The notes: a model not told the origin generated them from the letters alone. Counted from the stretch's first letter, positions 10,855 through 17,462 are shown. The stretch is 43,265 nt of DNA from Escherichia phage MarieHeimVoegtlin_Bas70 (PQ850619.1); one strand, 5' to 3'. Numbers and translations are program-made.

Positions 10855-11267
10855 TGGGCTACTTTGAGGACTTAACAAAAGCGTTCGATGTTCCGCTGGT
10901 AGCCTTCGGAACCGCCAACGGCATCAAGGTTGCGCTTGAAAACATCGACGCGCCGACGTCAACCGATACGCCGTATCTGGCGAGTTACATGCTACTGGCA
11001 GATACCGAGCAGGCGGATTTGTTCTTCACTGAGCAACGCTCTGGTATTTATCAGGTAGACATTAACTACGCATCGGTGAAAGGTAGCGCGCCAATCAATA
11101 AAATGGCAGACTTACTTAACACGGCGTTTAAAGCAGGTAAGTCATTTTCGCGTAACGACATCTGCGCCGAGGTTCAATCGGTTAGCCTGGGGCCGCTGAT
11201 TGTAGAAAACGGATGGGCCAAACGACCATTGTCAATTAACTTTATTGCATTCACCAAGAGGCTGTGA
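10854..11267 (+). CDS. tail terminator-like protein (putative)
   Basis: 137 aa ORF immediately upstream of the major tail protein gene, overlapping both neighbours. Confidence 0.4.
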   Translation: MGYFEDLTKAFDVPLVAFGTANGIKVALENIDAPTSTDTPYLASYMLLADTEQADLFFTEQRSGIYQVDINYASVKGSAPINKMADLLNTAFKAGKSFSRNDICAEVQSVSLGPLIVENGWAKRPLSINFIAFTKRL

Positions 11268-12436
11268 ATATGGCTACAACTCCTTTTAAGGGCGCGAATA
11301 CCGCGCAATTCTATGTGGCGGAAACTACCCCTGGCGTAACACCGACTAACCCGGTATGGTCGCCGTTGCGTAACACGGGCGGCGTTCCCGCTGTAACCCG
11401 CGATGCACTGACTTCCAACGAACTGGACGGCAGCCGTGAAACTACATCCATCCGAACCGGTAACAAGCAGGTTAGCGGGGAGTATGCCATCGAACTTAGC
11501 TCTCGTAGCCAGGATGATTTCCTTGCGGGAGCGATGACTTCTACGTGGCAAGCTGGGGTAGAGATTACTGGCGCCGAAATTACGGTCGCCCCAGCAGGTA
11601 AAACATTCACCCGCGCTGCCGGTAGCTTCATTACTGACGGTGTAGAAGTTGGCGACCTTATTGCGTTCACCGACTTAACCGGCGACAACGCAAAACCGTT
11701 TATCGTGACCGCGGTTTCCGCTCTGGTAGTTACGGGCGCAGGTATTCAGCACACGCTGACAGCAGAGACAGTAACCACTGACGCAAAAACTGGCGACAAG
11801 CTGGAAACCGGTAACGCGTGTAAGACGTTCTCCATCCTGACGTGGTTCAAGGGCCAGTGTGGTAACCCGGACGCGTACATGCTGACCAAAGGTGTGGAAA
11901 TCTCTGGCTTTACCGTAGAGCAGGCGGTTAACGCCATGGTCACCGGCAGCTTCCCGTTCATCGGCCTGAGTCAGGAGATTCTTACCGCGCCGCCGTCTGG
12001 CTCTGATTTCTCTCGGGTTACGTTCACCGATGAGCCGTTCTCGTCGGTAGATGTGTCGGTGTTCGATGGCTCCACGCCGTTGCGTTGCGATACTCTCACC
12101 ATCACCAACGACAACGGAGCTTCCGCGCAGTTCGAACTCGGTAACAGTAGCGTGGCGTTCGTCGAACGTGGACGCGCAGCTAACACATTCTCTATCTCTG
12201 GCAAGCTGTACGACATGGCGATGATTCAGAAGTTTATCAACGAGCAGCAGGTAGAGATTAACTCTATTCTGGCAGGGGTAAACGGGGCTATGTCTTTCAG
12301 TTTGAAACGTGCAGAGCTTACGGCGGTTACACCTGAGATTGGTGGGCCTGAGTCAATCACTCAGTCCATTGAAGGCCAGGCTACCGGCAATCAGTACCAG
12401 TCGTCTATCGTAATTCAACGTATCACCTACGCATAA
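11264..12436 (+). CDS. major tail (tube) protein
   Basis: 390 aa T/S/G-rich ORF, last gene before a strong terminator and upstream of chaperone and tape measure genes. Confidence 0.55.
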   Translation: MNMATTPFKGANTAQFYVAETTPGVTPTNPVWSPLRNTGGVPAVTRDALTSNELDGSRETTSIRTGNKQVSGEYAIELSSRSQDDFLAGAMTSTWQAGVEITGAEITVAPAGKTFTRAAGSFITDGVEVGDLIAFTDLTGDNAKPFIVTAVSALVVTGAGIQHTLTAETVTTDAKTGDKLETGNACKTFSILTWFKGQCGNPDAYMLTKGVEISGFTVEQAVNAMVTGSFPFIGLSQEILTAPPSGSDFSRVTFTDEPFSSVDVSVFDGSTPLRCDTLTITNDNGASAQFELGNSSVAFVERGRAANTFSISGKLYDMAMIQKFINEQQVEINSILAGVNGAMSFSLKRAELTAVTPEIGGPESITQSIEGQATGNQYQSSIVIQRITYA

Positions 12437-12440
12437 AACT

Positions 12441-12466
12441 AAGGCCCCTTTCGGGGCCTTTTTCTC
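12441..12466. terminator. bidirectional intrinsic terminator
   Basis: aaggcccc-tttc-ggggcctt hairpin with AAAACT on the 5' side and TTTTTCT on the 3' side. Sits between convergent genes ending at 12436 (+) and 12465 (-). Confidence 0.7.
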
Positions 12467-12695
12467 ACTCATCAATATTACTTCGATACTCCCGTAACTT
12501 CTCCAGACTTTCAATTGCTTCTGCTAAGTCGGTTCCGGTGTCCTTATGCCCGCGAAGACCCATGCACAATAACTTCTTCAATGCGTGCTGTAGTGCGGGG
12601 TCACGGATGTCGAAGGCACGGAGAACATCGTAAACGTCTACGGTCATAGTGCTGCCGTGAGTGTTTGTCATTGTTCGGTTGTATTTTGAAGTCAT
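12465..12695 (-). CDS. hypothetical protein (76 aa), cassette member
   Basis: ATGA overlap with the upstream phosphoesterase gene, so likely co-translated. Last gene before the terminator. Confidence 0.5.
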   Translation of the reverse strand: MTSKYNRTMTNTHGSTMTVDVYDVLRAFDIRDPALQHALKKLLCMGLRGHKDTGTDLAEAIESLEKLREYRSNIDE

Positions 12696-13822
12696 CCCAG
12701 CATCTCCGGTGAAATAGTTAAACGTGCGACCTCGCCATATTCGGCGCTATAAGTAATTACATTTGCACTACGGCCTGACATCCACCCGCCGCGGGAGGCA
12801 TAGGCGTCTTTAGCCGCTAAGGTGCGGTGTTGCTCAACAATCATGTTACGGCTTTCTACAATCTTCTGGTGGTGCAGGTGGCCTACGTGGGCGTAGCTAT
12901 AGACACTCTCACCGAACGCTTTGCGGAATTTGGCAATCATAACCGGTTCGATAGCATCGAATCGCGCCTTATGCCCGTGGTGAAAGAACAACGTCGTTTT
13001 TCCGTGTTGCACCATCTTGTAAACATCCGGCGACGTATCGACAATCACTCGGCTGTCGTTCGAATATAAAACTGTGAACATTTCAGCCAGCCATACAGAG
13101 CCTACAGGGTCATGGTTCCCCTGTACGATAAGCAAGCGAACATTTTTATGTTTAACCAGTGCCATATCTACAACACGGCGTACCATACGAATCATGTAGC
13201 GGACGAGTTTCTGGTAGCGAGTGTCTGCGTCCAACACGTGACGCGACTCAGGTGTAACGGCATCCAGACTATCGAAGTGCGCGAAATCACCCAGCAGGTT
13301 AATAACTCCTGTTCCTGCATCCGGTGCTTTCTGAAACGCCGCGTCGAACCAACGAGAGAACAGGTCTTCCGCAATCTTTATATCCCAGTCGTCGCCGCTC
13401 TCGTCGGCCCAGGCAAGCATACCGAGATGGAAATCAGATACCGTGTAAAGATTGAGTAGCTTGTCGTCGCGTTTGGCTCGAGTCGCTTTAGCCGGCGCAA
13501 CTGGCGTAATCTCTGACTTCATGCCTTCAATCACGGCTTTCATCAACTCGACCTGACGTTCAGCGTCGGTGTCTGTCTTAACCCATTGCAACTTAGTATT
13601 GCCGAACTCGTCTACCAGAGACGACGTCCCTTTAATCTTGTAGCCGTCTGGGACAAGGTGGCTAACGTCACGCCCGTGGCCTACACCTTTCTTAGCCAGC
13701 TTCGCTTTACGGATACGAATAACTCGGTCTGAGATGCCGTATTTACGGGCGATGTCTACATTCTTCATCCCGGCGTTCAATTCTTCCTGTAACTGTTCGT
13801 CGGTTATTTTCTTCTGGGCCAT
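12692..13822 (-). CDS. HTH domain-calcineurin-like metallophosphoesterase fusion
   Basis: 376 aa. N-terminal helix-turn-helix NVDIARKYGISDRVIRIRKAK. Then ordered metallophosphoesterase motifs: SDFH (DxH), LLGDFAHFD (GDxxD-like), QGNHD (GNHD/E), HHGH, VGHLHH (GHxH). Encoded antisense to the tail genes. Confidence 0.7.
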   Translation of the reverse strand: MAQKKITDEQLQEELNAGMKNVDIARKYGISDRVIRIRKAKLAKKGVGHGRDVSHLVPDGYKIKGTSSLVDEFGNTKLQWVKTDTDAERQVELMKAVIEGMKSEITPVAPAKATRAKRDDKLLNLYTVSDFHLGMLAWADESGDDWDIKIAEDLFSRWFDAAFQKAPDAGTGVINLLGDFAHFDSLDAVTPESRHVLDADTRYQKLVRYMIRMVRRVVDMALVKHKNVRLLIVQGNHDPVGSVWLAEMFTVLYSNDSRVIVDTSPDVYKMVQHGKTTLFFHHGHKARFDAIEPVMIAKFRKAFGESVYSYAHVGHLHHQKIVESRNMIVEQHRTLAAKDAYASRGGWMSGRSANVITYSAEYGEVARLTISPEMLG

Positions 13823-13887
13823 GCTTACTTCCTCGTGTTTAGGATTTGTCCTATTTAACCACAGTGGATTCCTTTAAATAAAGGCAA

Positions 13888-14214
13888 CTATTTACTTTCT
13901 GCGCCTATCGCCCACCCTGTCATTACCATTTGCAGACGGGTGGCTGTCAGTAGGCTATAGAAAGCATCTCCGTTTTTCTCTACCGAACGTATCACTGTGT
14001 AGGTTACGGCCTGCGGGGGTAGGCCCGATTTACCAACCTCCACGGCGGCCTCACACTCGCGAACTGTAGAGTCCTTGAACGCCTTTACAATAGTAGGGTC
14101 GGCTTTATCAAGCACACCAGAAGTCATAAGAACAGATTCACTAAATACCTGTTCGCACGGGGCTCCAAAAGTAGCAAAAGACATAAAACCCAGAGCTAGT
14201 ACTAATTTACGCAT
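13888..14214 (-). CDS. small secreted/periplasmic protein (108 aa)
   Basis: N-terminal signal-peptide-like MRKLVLALGFMSFATFGA. GAGGAA Shine-Dalgarno. Own promoter at 14240-14271. Confidence 0.55.
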   Translation of the reverse strand: MRKLVLALGFMSFATFGAPCEQVFSESVLMTSGVLDKADPTIVKAFKDSTVRECEAAVEVGKSGLPPQAVTYTVIRSVEKNGDAFYSLLTATRLQMVMTGWAIGAESK

Positions 14215-14239
14215 AATTATTTCCTCAGTAAGTTACATG

Positions 14240-14271
14240 TGAATAGTACCCTATTATATTGGGGTGTGCAA
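14240..14271 (-). promoter_or_regulatory. sigma70-like promoter (TTGCAC-N17-TACTAT) with embedded AATAG-N4-CTATT palindrome
   Basis: 32 bp identical to 5136-5167. Positioned about 25 nt upstream of the 13888-14214 start codon on the minus strand. Confidence 0.55.
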
Positions 14272-14378
14272 GTAGTGTGCTAGAATAAGTTTGCGCCTAG
14301 TGTCGCACACGAAAAGCGGGTGGTTCCCGCCTGGCGCATTAACCATAACCAGTAACCTCTTAACCAAAGGACTAAAGA

Positions 14379-14795
14379 ATGAAACTTTCTGATTTCTATT
14401 TTGCCGACCGCCACGCCGCCGGTACTAAAATGCCTATCCTTCTGCCCAGTGGTAAAGATTCCGGTGAATGGTTGCAGGTCATCGGCCCCGATTGTGACGC
14501 TGGTGTTCGTGCGGGCCGTGCCTACACAACGGCAATTCGACGCCTTACGGAAGAACTTGCGCCATTAGATAAAGAGTGCGAGGCGCTGAATAACTGGGCG
14601 CGCTATAATGATGAGAAGGGCTGGCGGGTGATGGACCTGAACAAGCAGCTTGCCGTGGAAATCGTCACCGGTTGGTCATTCGACGAACCATTCAGCAAAG
14701 AGGCGCTTGCTAACCTGTTCGACCAGTACAGTGGGTTGGCAGAGGCCGTAGTTAAGCATCACACCGATAGCCGTGAGAAACTCTCGGAAAAGTAA
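14379..14795 (+). CDS. tail assembly chaperone (lambda G-like)
   Basis: 138 aa ORF directly upstream of the tape measure gene. Ends ...CTC TCG GAA AAG TAA, with an overlapping -1 frame open to 15157. Confidence 0.6.
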   Translation: MKLSDFYFADRHAAGTKMPILLPSGKDSGEWLQVIGPDCDAGVRAGRAYTTAIRRLTEELAPLDKECEALNNWARYNDEKGWRVMDLNKQLAVEIVTGWSFDEPFSKEALANLFDQYSGLAEAVVKHHTDSREKLSEK

Positions 14796-15157
14796 AAGCG
14801 CTGTATGAATTTGCGCAATGGTGCTTTGTCGACCGCCACAAACGTAAGCAATTCGACGACATCGCGGCGGGCCACCAGGCGGCTTTGATTGCAATGGGCG
14901 TGATTAAAGAACCGCAGATGAAAGAAGCGACGGGGCCGGAATGCCCCGTTTCTCTTATCGACGTGTTCGAGAAATACCGTGCCATTAAATTCCTACAGCG
15001 CGAAACAGATGATACTATCGTTATAATCCCGCGCGATGCGCTCAAATGGCAAGATTTGGTAGCGTTTCGTGATGTCGCCGGTTACGGCATAAGTTTGTTC
15101 GAAGCCGAGGTTATCATGGGCTTAGACGGAATATTTGAGGGCAGAGAAGATGGCTGA
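14379..15157 (+). CDS. tail assembly chaperone frameshift product (G-T-like), -1 programmed frameshift
   Basis: The -1 frame is open from 14777 to 15157 with no ATG until 14894. It overlaps the last codons of the G-like ORF. Candidate slip site GGAAAAG at 14786-14792. The product ends inside the tape measure start region. Confidence 0.5.
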
Positions 15158-17462
15158 TACGGCTTCCCTAATCGCCAGAGTAAAAACAGAAGGTGCTGAC
15201 GTAGCTGCCAAACAGCTTGACGCTATGGCGTCGTCTGCAGACCGCGCTGATACCGCGGTAAACAAGCTGACTCCGGACGTTAATAAAGTAAACTCCGCTA
15301 CGTCTAAAGCGGCTTCTGACGGTTTCGCTAAGTTCCGTAACGCTGCCGGGCAGGTAGGCTTCCAGGTGCAGGACATGGTTGTCCAGCTGCAATCCGGTAC
15401 GTCAGCATTTGTGGCAATAGGCCAGCAAGGTTCGCAACTTGCGGGTGCTTTCGGCCCTGGTGGTGCTGTGCTTGGGGCCGTAATCGCACTAGCGTCGGCT
15501 GTTGGTGGAGTACTGTATAAATCACTAACCGAAGCAGAAGGCAGTTCAAAAGACCTCGAAGCCGCGCAGAAACAGTTAAAAGATACTTTCCAGCAAACGG
15601 CATCTGGCTCTCTCGAGCTGACAGACGGCCTTATCCAGCTTACCCAAATCAGCAGAGAAGCAGCGGAGACTCAGCTTGCTCTGGCTAAGGCTAACGCGGA
15701 CCTTATCGCGCAGCAAACCGCTAAAGCTGTTCGTGAAGATGCCGAATCATGGGAAACGTGGAAAGCCTCCACGGCGTCGGCGATTAGCCAGTATGATGCA
15801 TTAGTCTCTAAGGGCGCAGATGTAGGCGACACATTAGAAAAACTCGGCGGCACTTACGAGGGCAACATCGTAGGCGTCAACATGCTGGCGCAGAATATCG
15901 CGGAGCTTAGCAGTAAGTTCGGAGTTAACCGTGACCAGGCGCTGGAGATGATAGCGGCGCAGAGTGCGTTTAACAAAGAGCCAACCGCCGAGAATGCCCG
16001 TCGCATCGCCGATGTGTTTACCGACTGGCTCGGTAACACAAAACAGTTGAACCCGGAACTTATCCGCCTGACGGACAACGCCAACAAGAACGCCACGGCA
16101 CTGGAGAACGCGGAGAAGTCAGCAAACGCGGCGGCAGAGGCCCAAAAGAATCTTGGTCGCAACGTCAACTCAACCACGCAGAGATTCCAGGAACAGAACG
16201 AAGCTATCGTCAAAAACCAGCAAATCGCCATCTTAAGCGACCGTGAGCGTATCCGGGCGCAAGCTGAACTTGATAAACAGGCGTTCGCTAAACGTGAAGC
16301 CGTCACCAAAGAACAGATAGCCGCGTATAATGCGGCCCGCGACGCGGAAGCGCAGCAAGACATCGCCCGCATTGACAAGACCGAGAAAGAGAAGGCCGAC
16401 CGCGAGGCTAAATCGAACGAGGAACGTCTGGCGGCACAAGCCAAACGCGAAGAAACAGCGGCACAACGTCAGAAAAAAGCGGCGGAAGATTTCCTGGCTA
16501 CTGTCGACCGCACAACCGGAGACGAAATTTCACGTATCACAGCGGCAGAAGAACAGAAACTGGCGAAACTTGAAGAGTTCAACCGCGCCGGAACGATAAG
16601 CCAGCAGCAGTACGAAAACGCCAAAACTCAAATTATGCTCACCGCCGAGCAGGCCAGACAGGAAGAACTGGATAAGAAAAGAAAAGAGCAGCAGGAAAAG
16701 CAGCAGAAAGGCGACGACTTCATGGCCCAGATTATGGGTCAGAACGCCGCTGAGCTTGAGCTTCTCGACATCCAGGAACAGCAGAAACTGTCGGTAGCAG
16801 ATAAGTACCGCGAGCAGGGTTTGATTAGTGAGAAGCAGTATCAGGCTGCGCTTAATGCCATCAACGAGCAGTACGCCACGAAGCGTGCCGACGCAACGGC
16901 AACGGCCTTCGGTAACATGGCCTCAAACATCGGTTCGGCTTTGGGCGAGGCTTCTGGCGCGTACAAGGCATTCGCTATCGTGCAGGCCACTATAGCCACG
17001 TACACCGCGGCTATTGAGGCGTATAAGTCAACAGCGGCTATCCCTGTAGTTGGCCCGTTCCTGGCTCCTGTAGCTGCCGCTGCTGCCGTTGGGGCGGGTA
17101 TGGCGCAGATTTCCGCTATCAGGTCCGCACGTGAACAGGGCGGACAGTTATCCGCGGGGCAGGCTTCAACCATCGCCGAACGCGGTAAACCAGAAGTTAT
17201 CATGCCCGCTGGTGCGTCACGTGTACGCACCGCACAGCAGATGAAAGAAATTATGGGGCAAAACGGGTCTTCTTCCGGACCGTCTAATGTTACTATCGTA
17301 AACAACACGAGTTCTCAAATCGGCAACGTATCCACTGAGCAAGATGATGAAGGCCGTTTGCGTATCATCATCGAGGAGCAAGTGGCTGCCTCTTTGCGGA
17401 ACAGTAACAGTAAGATTAGCAAGGCCCGCAAGGCCACAAGAAATGCGCCGGGGTTTAAATAA
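15150..17462 (+). CDS. tail tape measure protein
   Basis: 771 aa from ATG 15150 (track ORF starts at TTG 15135). Long A/Q/E/K-rich predicted coiled coil. Directly after the chaperone pair. Confidence 0.8.
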   Translation: MADTASLIARVKTEGADVAAKQLDAMASSADRADTAVNKLTPDVNKVNSATSKAASDGFAKFRNAAGQVGFQVQDMVVQLQSGTSAFVAIGQQGSQLAGAFGPGGAVLGAVIALASAVGGVLYKSLTEAEGSSKDLEAAQKQLKDTFQQTASGSLELTDGLIQLTQISREAAETQLALAKANADLIAQQTAKAVREDAESWETWKASTASAISQYDALVSKGADVGDTLEKLGGTYEGNIVGVNMLAQNIAELSSKFGVNRDQALEMIAAQSAFNKEPTAENARRIADVFTDWLGNTKQLNPELIRLTDNANKNATALENAEKSANAAAEAQKNLGRNVNSTTQRFQEQNEAIVKNQQIAILSDRERIRAQAELDKQAFAKREAVTKEQIAAYNAARDAEAQQDIARIDKTEKEKADREAKSNEERLAAQAKREETAAQRQKKAAEDFLATVDRTTGDEISRITAAEEQKLAKLEEFNRAGTISQQQYENAKTQIMLTAEQARQEELDKKRKEQQEKQQKGDDFMAQIMGQNAAELELLDIQEQQKLSVADKYREQGLISEKQYQAALNAINEQYATKRADATATAFGNMASNIGSALGEASGAYKAFAIVQATIATYTAAIEAYKSTAAIPVVGPFLAPVAAAAAVGAGMAQISAIRSAREQGGQLSAGQASTIAERGKPEVIMPAGASRVRTAQQMKEIMGQNGSSSGPSNVTIVNNTSSQIGNVSTEQDDEGRLRIIIEEQVAASLRNSNSKISKARKATRNAPGFK

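Follow-up and report, generated by a model that had tools for sequence, protein, structure and literature searches.

How is the second of two overlapping tail assembly chaperone reading frames expressed when it has no start codon near its beginning? The locus that raises this question lies on the + strand of a 43,265-nt DNA from Escherichia phage MarieHeimVoegtlin_Bas70 (PQ850619.1), referred to below as the window. A sequence-only reading of this DNA had suggested that the two frames, G and T, are joined by programmed −1 frameshifting. Here, we asked whether the frame arrangement, the protein families, and the variation among homologous loci are consistent with such a junction, what the slip site is, and which other routes to a T product could account for the data.

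The G and T frames overlap by 19 nt upstream of the tape measure gene

A 1-kb segment around the chaperone junction is 99.9% identical to Escherichia phage LotteLoewe_Bas71 and 94 to 98% identical to many Kagunavirus phages (Guernseyvirinae); at the megablast level, the junction segment matches 220 phage records. These matches identify the window as a K1G/Jersey-like siphophage genome.

Gene G (14379–14795, + strand), recovered from the ORF list and by Pfam and PHROG matches, encodes a tail assembly chaperone of 138 amino acids (15.6 kDa) by standard decoding. Its TAA stop codon occupies 14793–14795, exactly where the sequence-only reading had placed the end of the ORF. A walk along the frames located an upstream −1-frame TGA at 14774–14776 (+ strand), which sets the 5′ limit for a productive −1 shift. 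From there, the −1 frame is open over 14777–15157, as had been proposed, up to a TGA at 15155–15157. G and T thus overlap by 19 nt in the window (14777–14795), read in the zero frame as GAG AAA CTC TCG GAA AAG TAA. In relatives with CGC or CGG in place of CGT, the 14774-type TGA is absent and the overlap is 25 to 208 nt long. The T segment proper (14792–15157, + strand, −1 frame), supported by Pfam, PHROG, and the substitution pattern, comprises 121 codons and the stop codon. This stop overlaps the ATG at 15150 of the tape measure protein gene (ATGGCTGA), so the earlier placement of the frame's end in the tape measure start region also holds. The tape measure gene itself (15150–17462, + strand) matches phrog_1538, tail length tape measure protein, with E = 2.9e-198.

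The earliest ATG, GTG, or TTG codon of the −1 frame is TTG 14885, located 92 nt beyond the G stop, and the earliest ATG is at 14894; the claim that no ATG lies near the beginning of the frame is therefore correct. The +1 frame beyond the G stop is open for 4 codons only, which makes a −1 shift the only productive one; +1 and −2 shifts were rejected on this ground. To place the junction among others, we used the window's 103 open frames with a length of 100 codons or more. At only four junctions, G→T being one of them, does the adjacent frame run on for at least 100 codons with no start codon closer than 90 nt to the upstream stop; in true gene pairs of the window, a start is located at −20 to +5 nt from that stop. 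G is also the single case among 118 ATG-started ORFs of at least 60 amino acids in which AAAG forms the final four bases before the stop codon. Lysine codon usage in the window is 55% AAA and 45% AAG.

The overlap contains a single in-phase Z_ZZN tetramer, A_AAG (14789–14792, + strand), which lies inside G_GAA_AAG (14786–14792, + strand), the heptamer named by the sequence-only reading. No heptamer of the canonical X_XXY_YYZ form is found here, since G_GAA_AAG does not fit it and the A_AAG tetramer stands alone. A −1 shift at this site would yield a GT protein with a predicted length of 259 amino acids and a computed mass of 29.3 kDa, heavier than the roughly 27 kDa given earlier. The predicted junction reads ...REKLSEK/VKALYEFAQW..., K138 (codon AAG, within 14789–14792) being the last zero-frame residue of GT. 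Expected junction peptides are KVKALYE after Glu-C digestion and LSEK, VK, and ALYEFAQWCFVDR after trypsin digestion; the tryptic peptides do not span the junction.

The two frames match the two halves of one protein family

G matches the Pfam family PF08748 (Phage_TAC_4) with 35.9 bits (cutoff, 21.1; E = 1e-8), positions 1–138 of phrog_15027 (E = 1e-65), and phrog_313 (E = 3e-26). The −1 ORF matches PF23812 (Phage_TAC_18) with 64.6 bits (cutoff, 27; E = 9.5e-18) and covers positions 138–259 of phrog_15027. The length of this profile is 259, and the join falls exactly at K138. Since G and the −1 ORF are the two halves of a single profile, phrog_15027 was evidently built from fused products. 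A sequence search against solved structures returned no relative.

The PF23812 model begins at residue 37 of the −1 ORF, which corresponds to the internal TTG/Met, and the phrog_4557 model begins at the CTG codon. Both models omit the most conserved N-terminal 31 to 34 residues of the T part and appear to have been built from mis-started stand-alone ORFs.

The upstream synteny partner of the pair is the tail tube protein gene (11264–12436, + strand; PF18906, Phage_tube_2, E = 7e-38), whose homolog in phage Shashou is annotated as a tail tube protein. Three minus-strand genes (12465–14214) sit between the tube gene and G. They encode a 76-amino acid protein (phrog_2452, no function assigned), a 376-amino acid metallophosphoesterase or "DNA repair exonuclease" (phrog_704), and a 108-amino acid protein with a hydrophobic N terminus (phrog_14165, no function assigned). 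The 164-nt divergent intergenic region that follows (14215–14378) carries promoter-like sites on both strands. Because the minus-strand genes interrupt the tail module, G is likely to begin its own transcription unit after this region. Overall, the family matches, the gene context, and the conservation in relatives described below speak for the G/GT arrangement of long-tailed phages that had been proposed for this locus.

The junction is constrained at the nucleotide level

A protein-based scan of IMG/VR yielded 47 homologous loci with 30 to 99% identity, to which GenBank relatives were added. All of the ~50 homologous loci retain the −1 arrangement, and 512 GenBank phage records match in two pieces. 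The layout of the family is uniform: G of ~138 amino acids, a stop codon, and then the −1 frame for 119 to 121 codons. For the junction itself, we counted 45 complete loci found by protein similarity (from L001–L045 and L051–L054; L038 and L046 were left out as incomplete). An AAAG-TAR junction is present in 45 of 45, down to 30% identity.

To compare the junction with the rest of the coding sequence, we aligned 49 distinct G-T sequences by codon; their identity averages 59% and is 26% at the lowest. The third base is invariant in 7 of 259 columns, and the median third-position entropy is 1.43 bits. The seven columns are Met1, Trp99, Met247, and codons 137 (xxA), 138 (AAG), 139 (GTA), and 142 (YTG); the degenerate codons with an invariant third base are thus only the last four, all of them at the junction. 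At codon 137, the third base is A in 49 of 49 sequences and the encoded residue varies between E, V, A, G, K, and S. When the 65 conserved degenerate columns were ranked by codon entropy, the four lowest values belonged to K138 (AAG in 49 of 49), V139 (GTA in 49 of 49), A141 (GCG in 48 of 49), and L142 (CTG in 48 of 49). The remaining columns have entropies of at least 0.41 bits, with other conserved Ala, Leu, and Val columns at 1.0 to 2.2 bits. The third-base invariance and the low codon entropies together reveal a sharp nucleotide-level constraint over A_AAG_TAR_NN_GCGCTG (14789–14803). This stretch comprises the tetramer, the adjoining zero-frame stop, and a 3′ hexamer, GCGCTG (14798–14803, + strand), which the codon entropies bring out and which would form codons Ala141-Leu142 of GT.

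Sixty-three distinct slip contexts were collected: G_GAA_AAG (44), G_GTA_AAG (5), A_GCA_AAG (5), C_GCA_AAG (3), G_GCA_AAG (3), and one each of G_GGA_AAG, G_TCA_AAG, and A_AAA_AAG. Since both the codon before AAG and the base preceding it vary, the conserved core is A_AAG (as NNA_AAG) plus the stop codon, not the heptamer. The sequence-only reading was accurate as to the position of GGAAAAG, its noncanonical character, and its being the sole lysine-slippery candidate in the overlap; taking the heptamer as the unit of the signal did not hold up, because its 5′ part varies across the 63 family contexts.

A canonical heptamer is seen at the junction in two cases, G_GGA_AAG in L041/L068 (IMGVR_UViG_2974654489_000001) and A_AAA_AAG in L054 (Shewanella phage 3/49). 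The L041 heptamer is one base off those of its G_GAA_AAG relatives, and both heptamers still abut the stop codon. Distant G homologs (L047–L050 from IMG/VR, 30 to 35% identity) carry in-phase T_TTT_TTC, T_TTT_TTT, or A_AAT_TTT. These heptamers lie 18 to 48 nt upstream of the stop (overlaps near 1830–1893), in place of A_AAG beside the stop. The canonical heptamers of the distant homologs indicate a reliance on −1 frameshifting across the wider family, with a separate site for the clade of the window.

An IMG/VR scan for AAAGTARNNGCGCTGTA returned 80 loci, about half of which are chance matches, and revealed no use of the cassette outside the family of the window. L058, considered as a second family with the same cassette, was rejected as simply an ATG-started ORF.

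The start-less beginning of T shows the pattern of a coding sequence

In the window, the 31 codons that follow the slip site (14792–14884) contain no ATG, GTG, or TTG. Their entropy is 40.6 bits at third positions, compared with 18.9 bits at first and 18.6 bits at second positions, and the best-conserved motif of T, V-x-A-L-Y-x-F/Y-A-x-W-...-F-D-x-I-...-G-H, is located inside them. By this substitution pattern, the start-less 31 codons are under protein-level selection in the −1 frame.

Among relatives, the first canonical start codon of the −1 frame is found anywhere from +11 to +281 nt (at +140, +281, and +170 nt in L016, L026, and L027, respectively). Met173, encoded by ATG 14894 in the window, is conserved in 43 of 49 sequences and replaced by Ile in 6; in three of these six, the first start lies at +140 nt or beyond. 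Given the scattered starts, the Ile173 sequences, and the conserved start-less codons, independent initiation cannot explain the conservation of this segment. An in-frame G-T fusion was found neither in the 10 matches of a word-indexed search nor among 100 matching cluster representatives (E ≤ 0.001) when 1.84 billion representative proteins were scanned; we treat both results as neutral in weight.

The proposed slip site belongs to a weak class and lacks recognizable stimulators

In E. coli, no tetramer shifts more readily than A_AAG, because the single tRNA-Lys that serves both AAA and AAG pairs poorly with AAG (PMC5009743; PMC4066793). Sites of the NNA_AAG class are documented in E. coli, are used by IS1222, and are present in Bacillus subtilis cdd (PMC5009743). 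In reporters, A_AAG without a stimulator supported ~0.15% frameshifting, barely over background, and reached 5.6% only with a pseudoknot (PMC4066793). The window junction has the sequence of this class, with GAA_AAG in phase at 14787–14792 and both the A and AAG invariant in 49 of 49 sequences, but the stimulator that goes with the class, an upstream Shine-Dalgarno (SD) sequence or a downstream hairpin or pseudoknot, was not found there. The one-tRNA-Lys condition should apply to the window, whose host is taken to be E. coli from the 99.9% identity with an E. coli phage; ARAGORN detected no tRNA genes in the window that could compete.

The search for stimulators covered both sides of the slip site. 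RNAalifold on 14 lineages gave no conserved downstream hairpin (−1.37 kcal/mol), a single-sequence fold of the downstream region gave z = +0.9, and 40-nt windows after the stop in 16 lineages had a mean z of 0.02 with nothing conserved. An Rfam scan of 14300–15300 at E ≤ 10 produced noise only. Within 30 nt upstream, there are purine-rich codons with no conserved SD motif or spacing. Between −150 and +200 nt, no pairing partner for GCGCUG is shared by the lineages; the best position pairs in 7 of 15 lineages and is absent from the window. What does recur is the stop codon: TAR adjoins AAAG in all family loci, the arrangement of a "shifty stop." As bare A_AAG is weak and no conserved stimulator was found, the frameshifting rate may be low or may depend on the stop codon and GCGCUG. 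With the adjacency of the stop invariant and the other stimulators missing, a pause at the stop codon (TAA 14793–14795, + strand) would be the most economical candidate stimulator.

A bolder proposal is that the 15-nt A_AAG_UAR_NN_GCGCUG (14789–14803) acts as one compact cassette, in which −1 slippage beside the stop codon is boosted by GCGCUG in a sequence-specific way, without a hairpin. We put this forward tentatively and consider it rather unlikely. GCGCUG is located 5 nt beyond the slip codon, close to the point at which the mRNA goes into the ribosome. If the proposal is true, the cassette would be a kind of bacterial −1 stimulator undescribed in the literature searched, and the boost by GCGCUG would explain how a weak tetramer gives a useful rate.

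A separate element was noticed inside the T coding region, where a terminator-like GC-rich hairpin (14929–14950, + strand) is followed by a T-rich tail, the element extending to 14960. It consists of the stem ACGGGGC/GCCCCGT, the loop CGGAAT, and then TTCTCTTATC, and it encodes T-G-P-E-C-P-V-S-L-I. In most relatives, a GC-rich hairpin with other outer pairs and residues precedes TTTTTAT at the same position of T, for example, GGGGTGGGC..GCCCGCCCC TTTTTAT in L030. Pairing of the stem across lineages is 66.7% versus 58.8% in shuffles (0 of 500), and covariation is 0.222 versus 0.141 (7 of 500), with some compensatory changes. L016, L017, L026, and L051 have a weak hairpin or none, and RNAalifold returns no consensus for the hairpin. 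It is too distant from the slip site to be a classical frameshift stimulator. Since this stretch would be read by frameshifted ribosomes only, leaving the mRNA there largely ribosome-free, the hairpin could be a partial terminator or a stability element. One speculative role is to set expression of G above that of the tape measure gene, through attenuation or mRNA stability.

Proposed route to GT and its rivals

We consider it highly probable that GT is made by ribosomes shifting into the −1 frame at A_AAG. Most ribosomes translating G would stop at TAA 14793–14795 and release the 138-amino acid G protein. A small fraction would slip by −1 on A_AAG (14789–14792), with tRNA-Lys moving from AAG to AAA, decode GTA at 14792–14794 as Val, and stay in the −1 frame up to TGA 15155–15157, producing the 259-amino acid GT fusion. 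The site would be a hexanucleotide of the NNA_AAG type, not a tandem X_XXY_YYZ heptamer. P-site slippage would take place while AAG occupies the P site and UAA the A site; a slow termination step would leave the peptidyl-tRNA-Lys time to re-pair, and after the slip GUA would be decoded by abundant tRNA-Val. By analogy with phage lambda, the G part may bind the tape measure protein and the T part may recruit the tail tube protein, and the slip frequency may set a low GT:G ratio.

The same shift could also come about through tandem slippage on G_GAA_AAG, in which tRNA-Glu moves from GAA to GGA and tRNA-Lys from AAG to AAA during translocation, without any role for the stop codon. The heptamer occurs in the window and in 44 of the 63 contexts, and tRNA-Glu, assuming the anticodon UUC, would be able to re-pair with GGA through G-C, G·U, and A-U pairs. 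Lambda uses the related G_GGA_AAG, which shifts very readily in E. coli (PMC5009743) and is present in one relative (L041). However, in the lineages with A_GCA, C_GCA, and G_TCA, the tRNA on the 5′ codon would, judging from anticodons, hardly re-pair at all, and the junction is kept nonetheless. What stays invariant is the A before AAG together with the stop beside it, and no downstream structure that would slow translocation was found. We therefore regard tandem slippage as possible but doubtful. Whether the stop codon, rather than tandem slippage, drives the shift is in our estimation an evenly balanced matter.

The other explanations dispense with a ribosomal shift altogether. T could be a separate protein with its own initiation, either by reinitiation at CTG 14801, for which GGA(A) would be a weak SD, or from TTG 14885 or ATG 14894. 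Several records annotate it so; in Ent1 and Shashou, a TTG takes the place of this CTG, and an AGGA ribosome binding site is listed 12 nt upstream of it in Shashou. Met173 is conserved in 43 of 49 sequences, many 87-amino acid gene-caller products begin at it, and the conserved GCG-CTG can be read as a start context. Nevertheless, CTG is a very poor bacterial initiator, and the position is CTG in 48 of 49 sequences and never ATG or GTG. The putative SD is missing in the AGCAAAG, CGCAAAG, and GTCAAAG lineages. The downstream starts fare no better: the first canonical ones are scattered over +11 to +281 nt, Met173 is Ile in six sequences (three without a start before +140 nt), and the 31 to 34 codons upstream of 14885/14894 are the most conserved in T and evolve as coding sequence. 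Reinitiation also leaves the invariant A_AAG and the fixed −1 phase unexplained, and in lambda the T part works as a fusion only (PMC5009743). We judge independent initiation of T to be very unlikely. Another conceivable route is transcriptional slippage, with RNA polymerase dropping one A so that a minority of mRNAs have G and T in frame. There is a short A-run, GGAAAAG, in the window, and polymerase slippage serves a similar purpose in some systems (PMC5009743). Against it, the run consists of four A's in the window and of only three in the GTAAAG, GCAAAG, and TCAAAG relatives, which makes this route unlikely. Runs of three to four A's are far below the lengths at which polymerase is known to slip. 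The conserved reading-frame phase and the adjacent stop would have no role in such a model, and we give it hardly any credence. Last, the downstream frame could be a decaying or untranslated remnant, with G alone being functional. In the literature searched, no experimental detection of GT is on record, as this explanation would have it, but the 121-codon frame is open in all relatives, substitutions in T are dominated by third positions with many synonymous differences among near-identical phages, and T matches a Pfam domain above threshold. The remnant explanation is accordingly the least credible of all, with a negligible probability.

Annotation of the pair in relatives

A joined two-piece coding sequence is annotated in K1ind2 (RefSeq), fFiEco02, and Shewanella phage 3/49. 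The pairs in K1ind2 (ORF21A/21B, NC_041898) and vB_EcoS_fFiEco02 (FE2_025/026, MT711523) are homologous to that of the window with 50 to 99% identity; they have the same junction and a 259- or 260-amino acid fusion and were annotated by inference. In Bas71, the nearest relative (99.9%), the second ORF is given as a separate one starting at the CTG that corresponds to window position 14801. Ent1 and Shashou likewise have a separate second ORF, from TTG at the position of the window CTG, and the Shashou record lists a ribosome binding site (AGGA) 12 nt upstream of this TTG. In XY2 and Tsm2, the second ORF was started at an internal TTG or ATG. The paper on Shashou describes the canonical slippery sequence as absent (PMC6776780). 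The helicase gene in the Shashou record (L175, 24885–27266) is annotated with an intein and a homing endonuclease.

Our literature searches returned no experiment on GT or on frameshifting in any Guernseyvirinae phage. With a joined coding sequence in some records and separate ORFs elsewhere, the frameshift is known by inference and disputed in practice. The comparisons presented above give good support to the view that the window locus is a real, ordinary G/GT frameshift pair. Its noncanonical signal is conserved throughout the subfamily and is undescribed in the literature searched. For annotation, the consequences are practical: hundreds of Kagunavirus and Jerseyvirus records give T as a separate ORF, called "hypothetical protein" or "tail assembly chaperone" and started from CTG, TTG, or an internal Met. 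The comparative evidence fixes the join at K138/V139 for the whole subfamily.

Comparison with known frameshifting systems

The closest functional parallel is the gpG/gpGT −1 frameshift of phage lambda (Levin, Hendrix & Casjens 1993; Xu, Hendrix & Duda 2004, 2013, 2014, as cited in PMC5009743). In both cases, the space between the tube and tape measure genes holds a pair of overlapping ORFs, of which the second is in the −1 frame and without its own start; the slip occurs, or would occur, on the Lys codon AAG, no downstream structure is evident, and a low-abundance fusion is expected. The lambda site is a canonical tandem heptamer, G_GGA_AAG, located upstream of the G stop, whereas in the window the stop comes immediately after the slip codon, which is the last one with a sense reading. 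In addition, the 5′ codon in the window is GAA and is variable in the family, so that re-pairing on it is not conserved, and the tube gene is parted from G by three minus-strand genes. No significant sequence similarity of the window proteins to lambda G or T was found, the matches being to the Phage_TAC_4 and Phage_TAC_18 families.

In its slip-site sequence, the junction resembles G_CGA_AAG of IS1222 and A_CGA_AAG of B. subtilis cdd (Licznar et al. 2003; Mejlhede et al., both as presented in PMC5009743). At those sites, according to that account, a single tRNA-Lys slips from AAG to AAA, and the 5′ codon has to end in A. The identity of this codon modulates such sites without defining them, and the hosts have one tRNA-Lys(UUU). 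All this would apply equally to the family of the window. Stimulators help the known sites: IS1222 has a structure downstream, and cdd has an SD upstream. Their 5′ codon is CGA, whereas the window family has GAA, GTA, GCA, GGA, TCA, or AAA and neither an SD nor a structure that is conserved; it has instead the invariant adjacent stop and GCGCUG 5 nt downstream.

The position of the slip codon recalls "shifty stop" frameshifting (Weiss et al. 1987; also the prfB and antizyme +1 sites, per PMC5009743). There, too, the shift codon is directly 5′ of the zero-frame stop, whose slow decoding is thought, in that account, to permit re-pairing. We infer a similar role for the stop in the window solely from its adjacency to the slip codon, conserved in 100% of the loci. 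The well-known natural examples are +1 shifts, whereas the shift in the window would be −1. If it takes place as proposed, the G-T junction would offer recoding biology a naturally occurring −1 shift with deep conservation, placed on a bare A_AAG beside a stop codon and with no recognizable structure. With its conserved 3′ hexamer, it would also provide a testable case of how weak slip sites gain useful rates.
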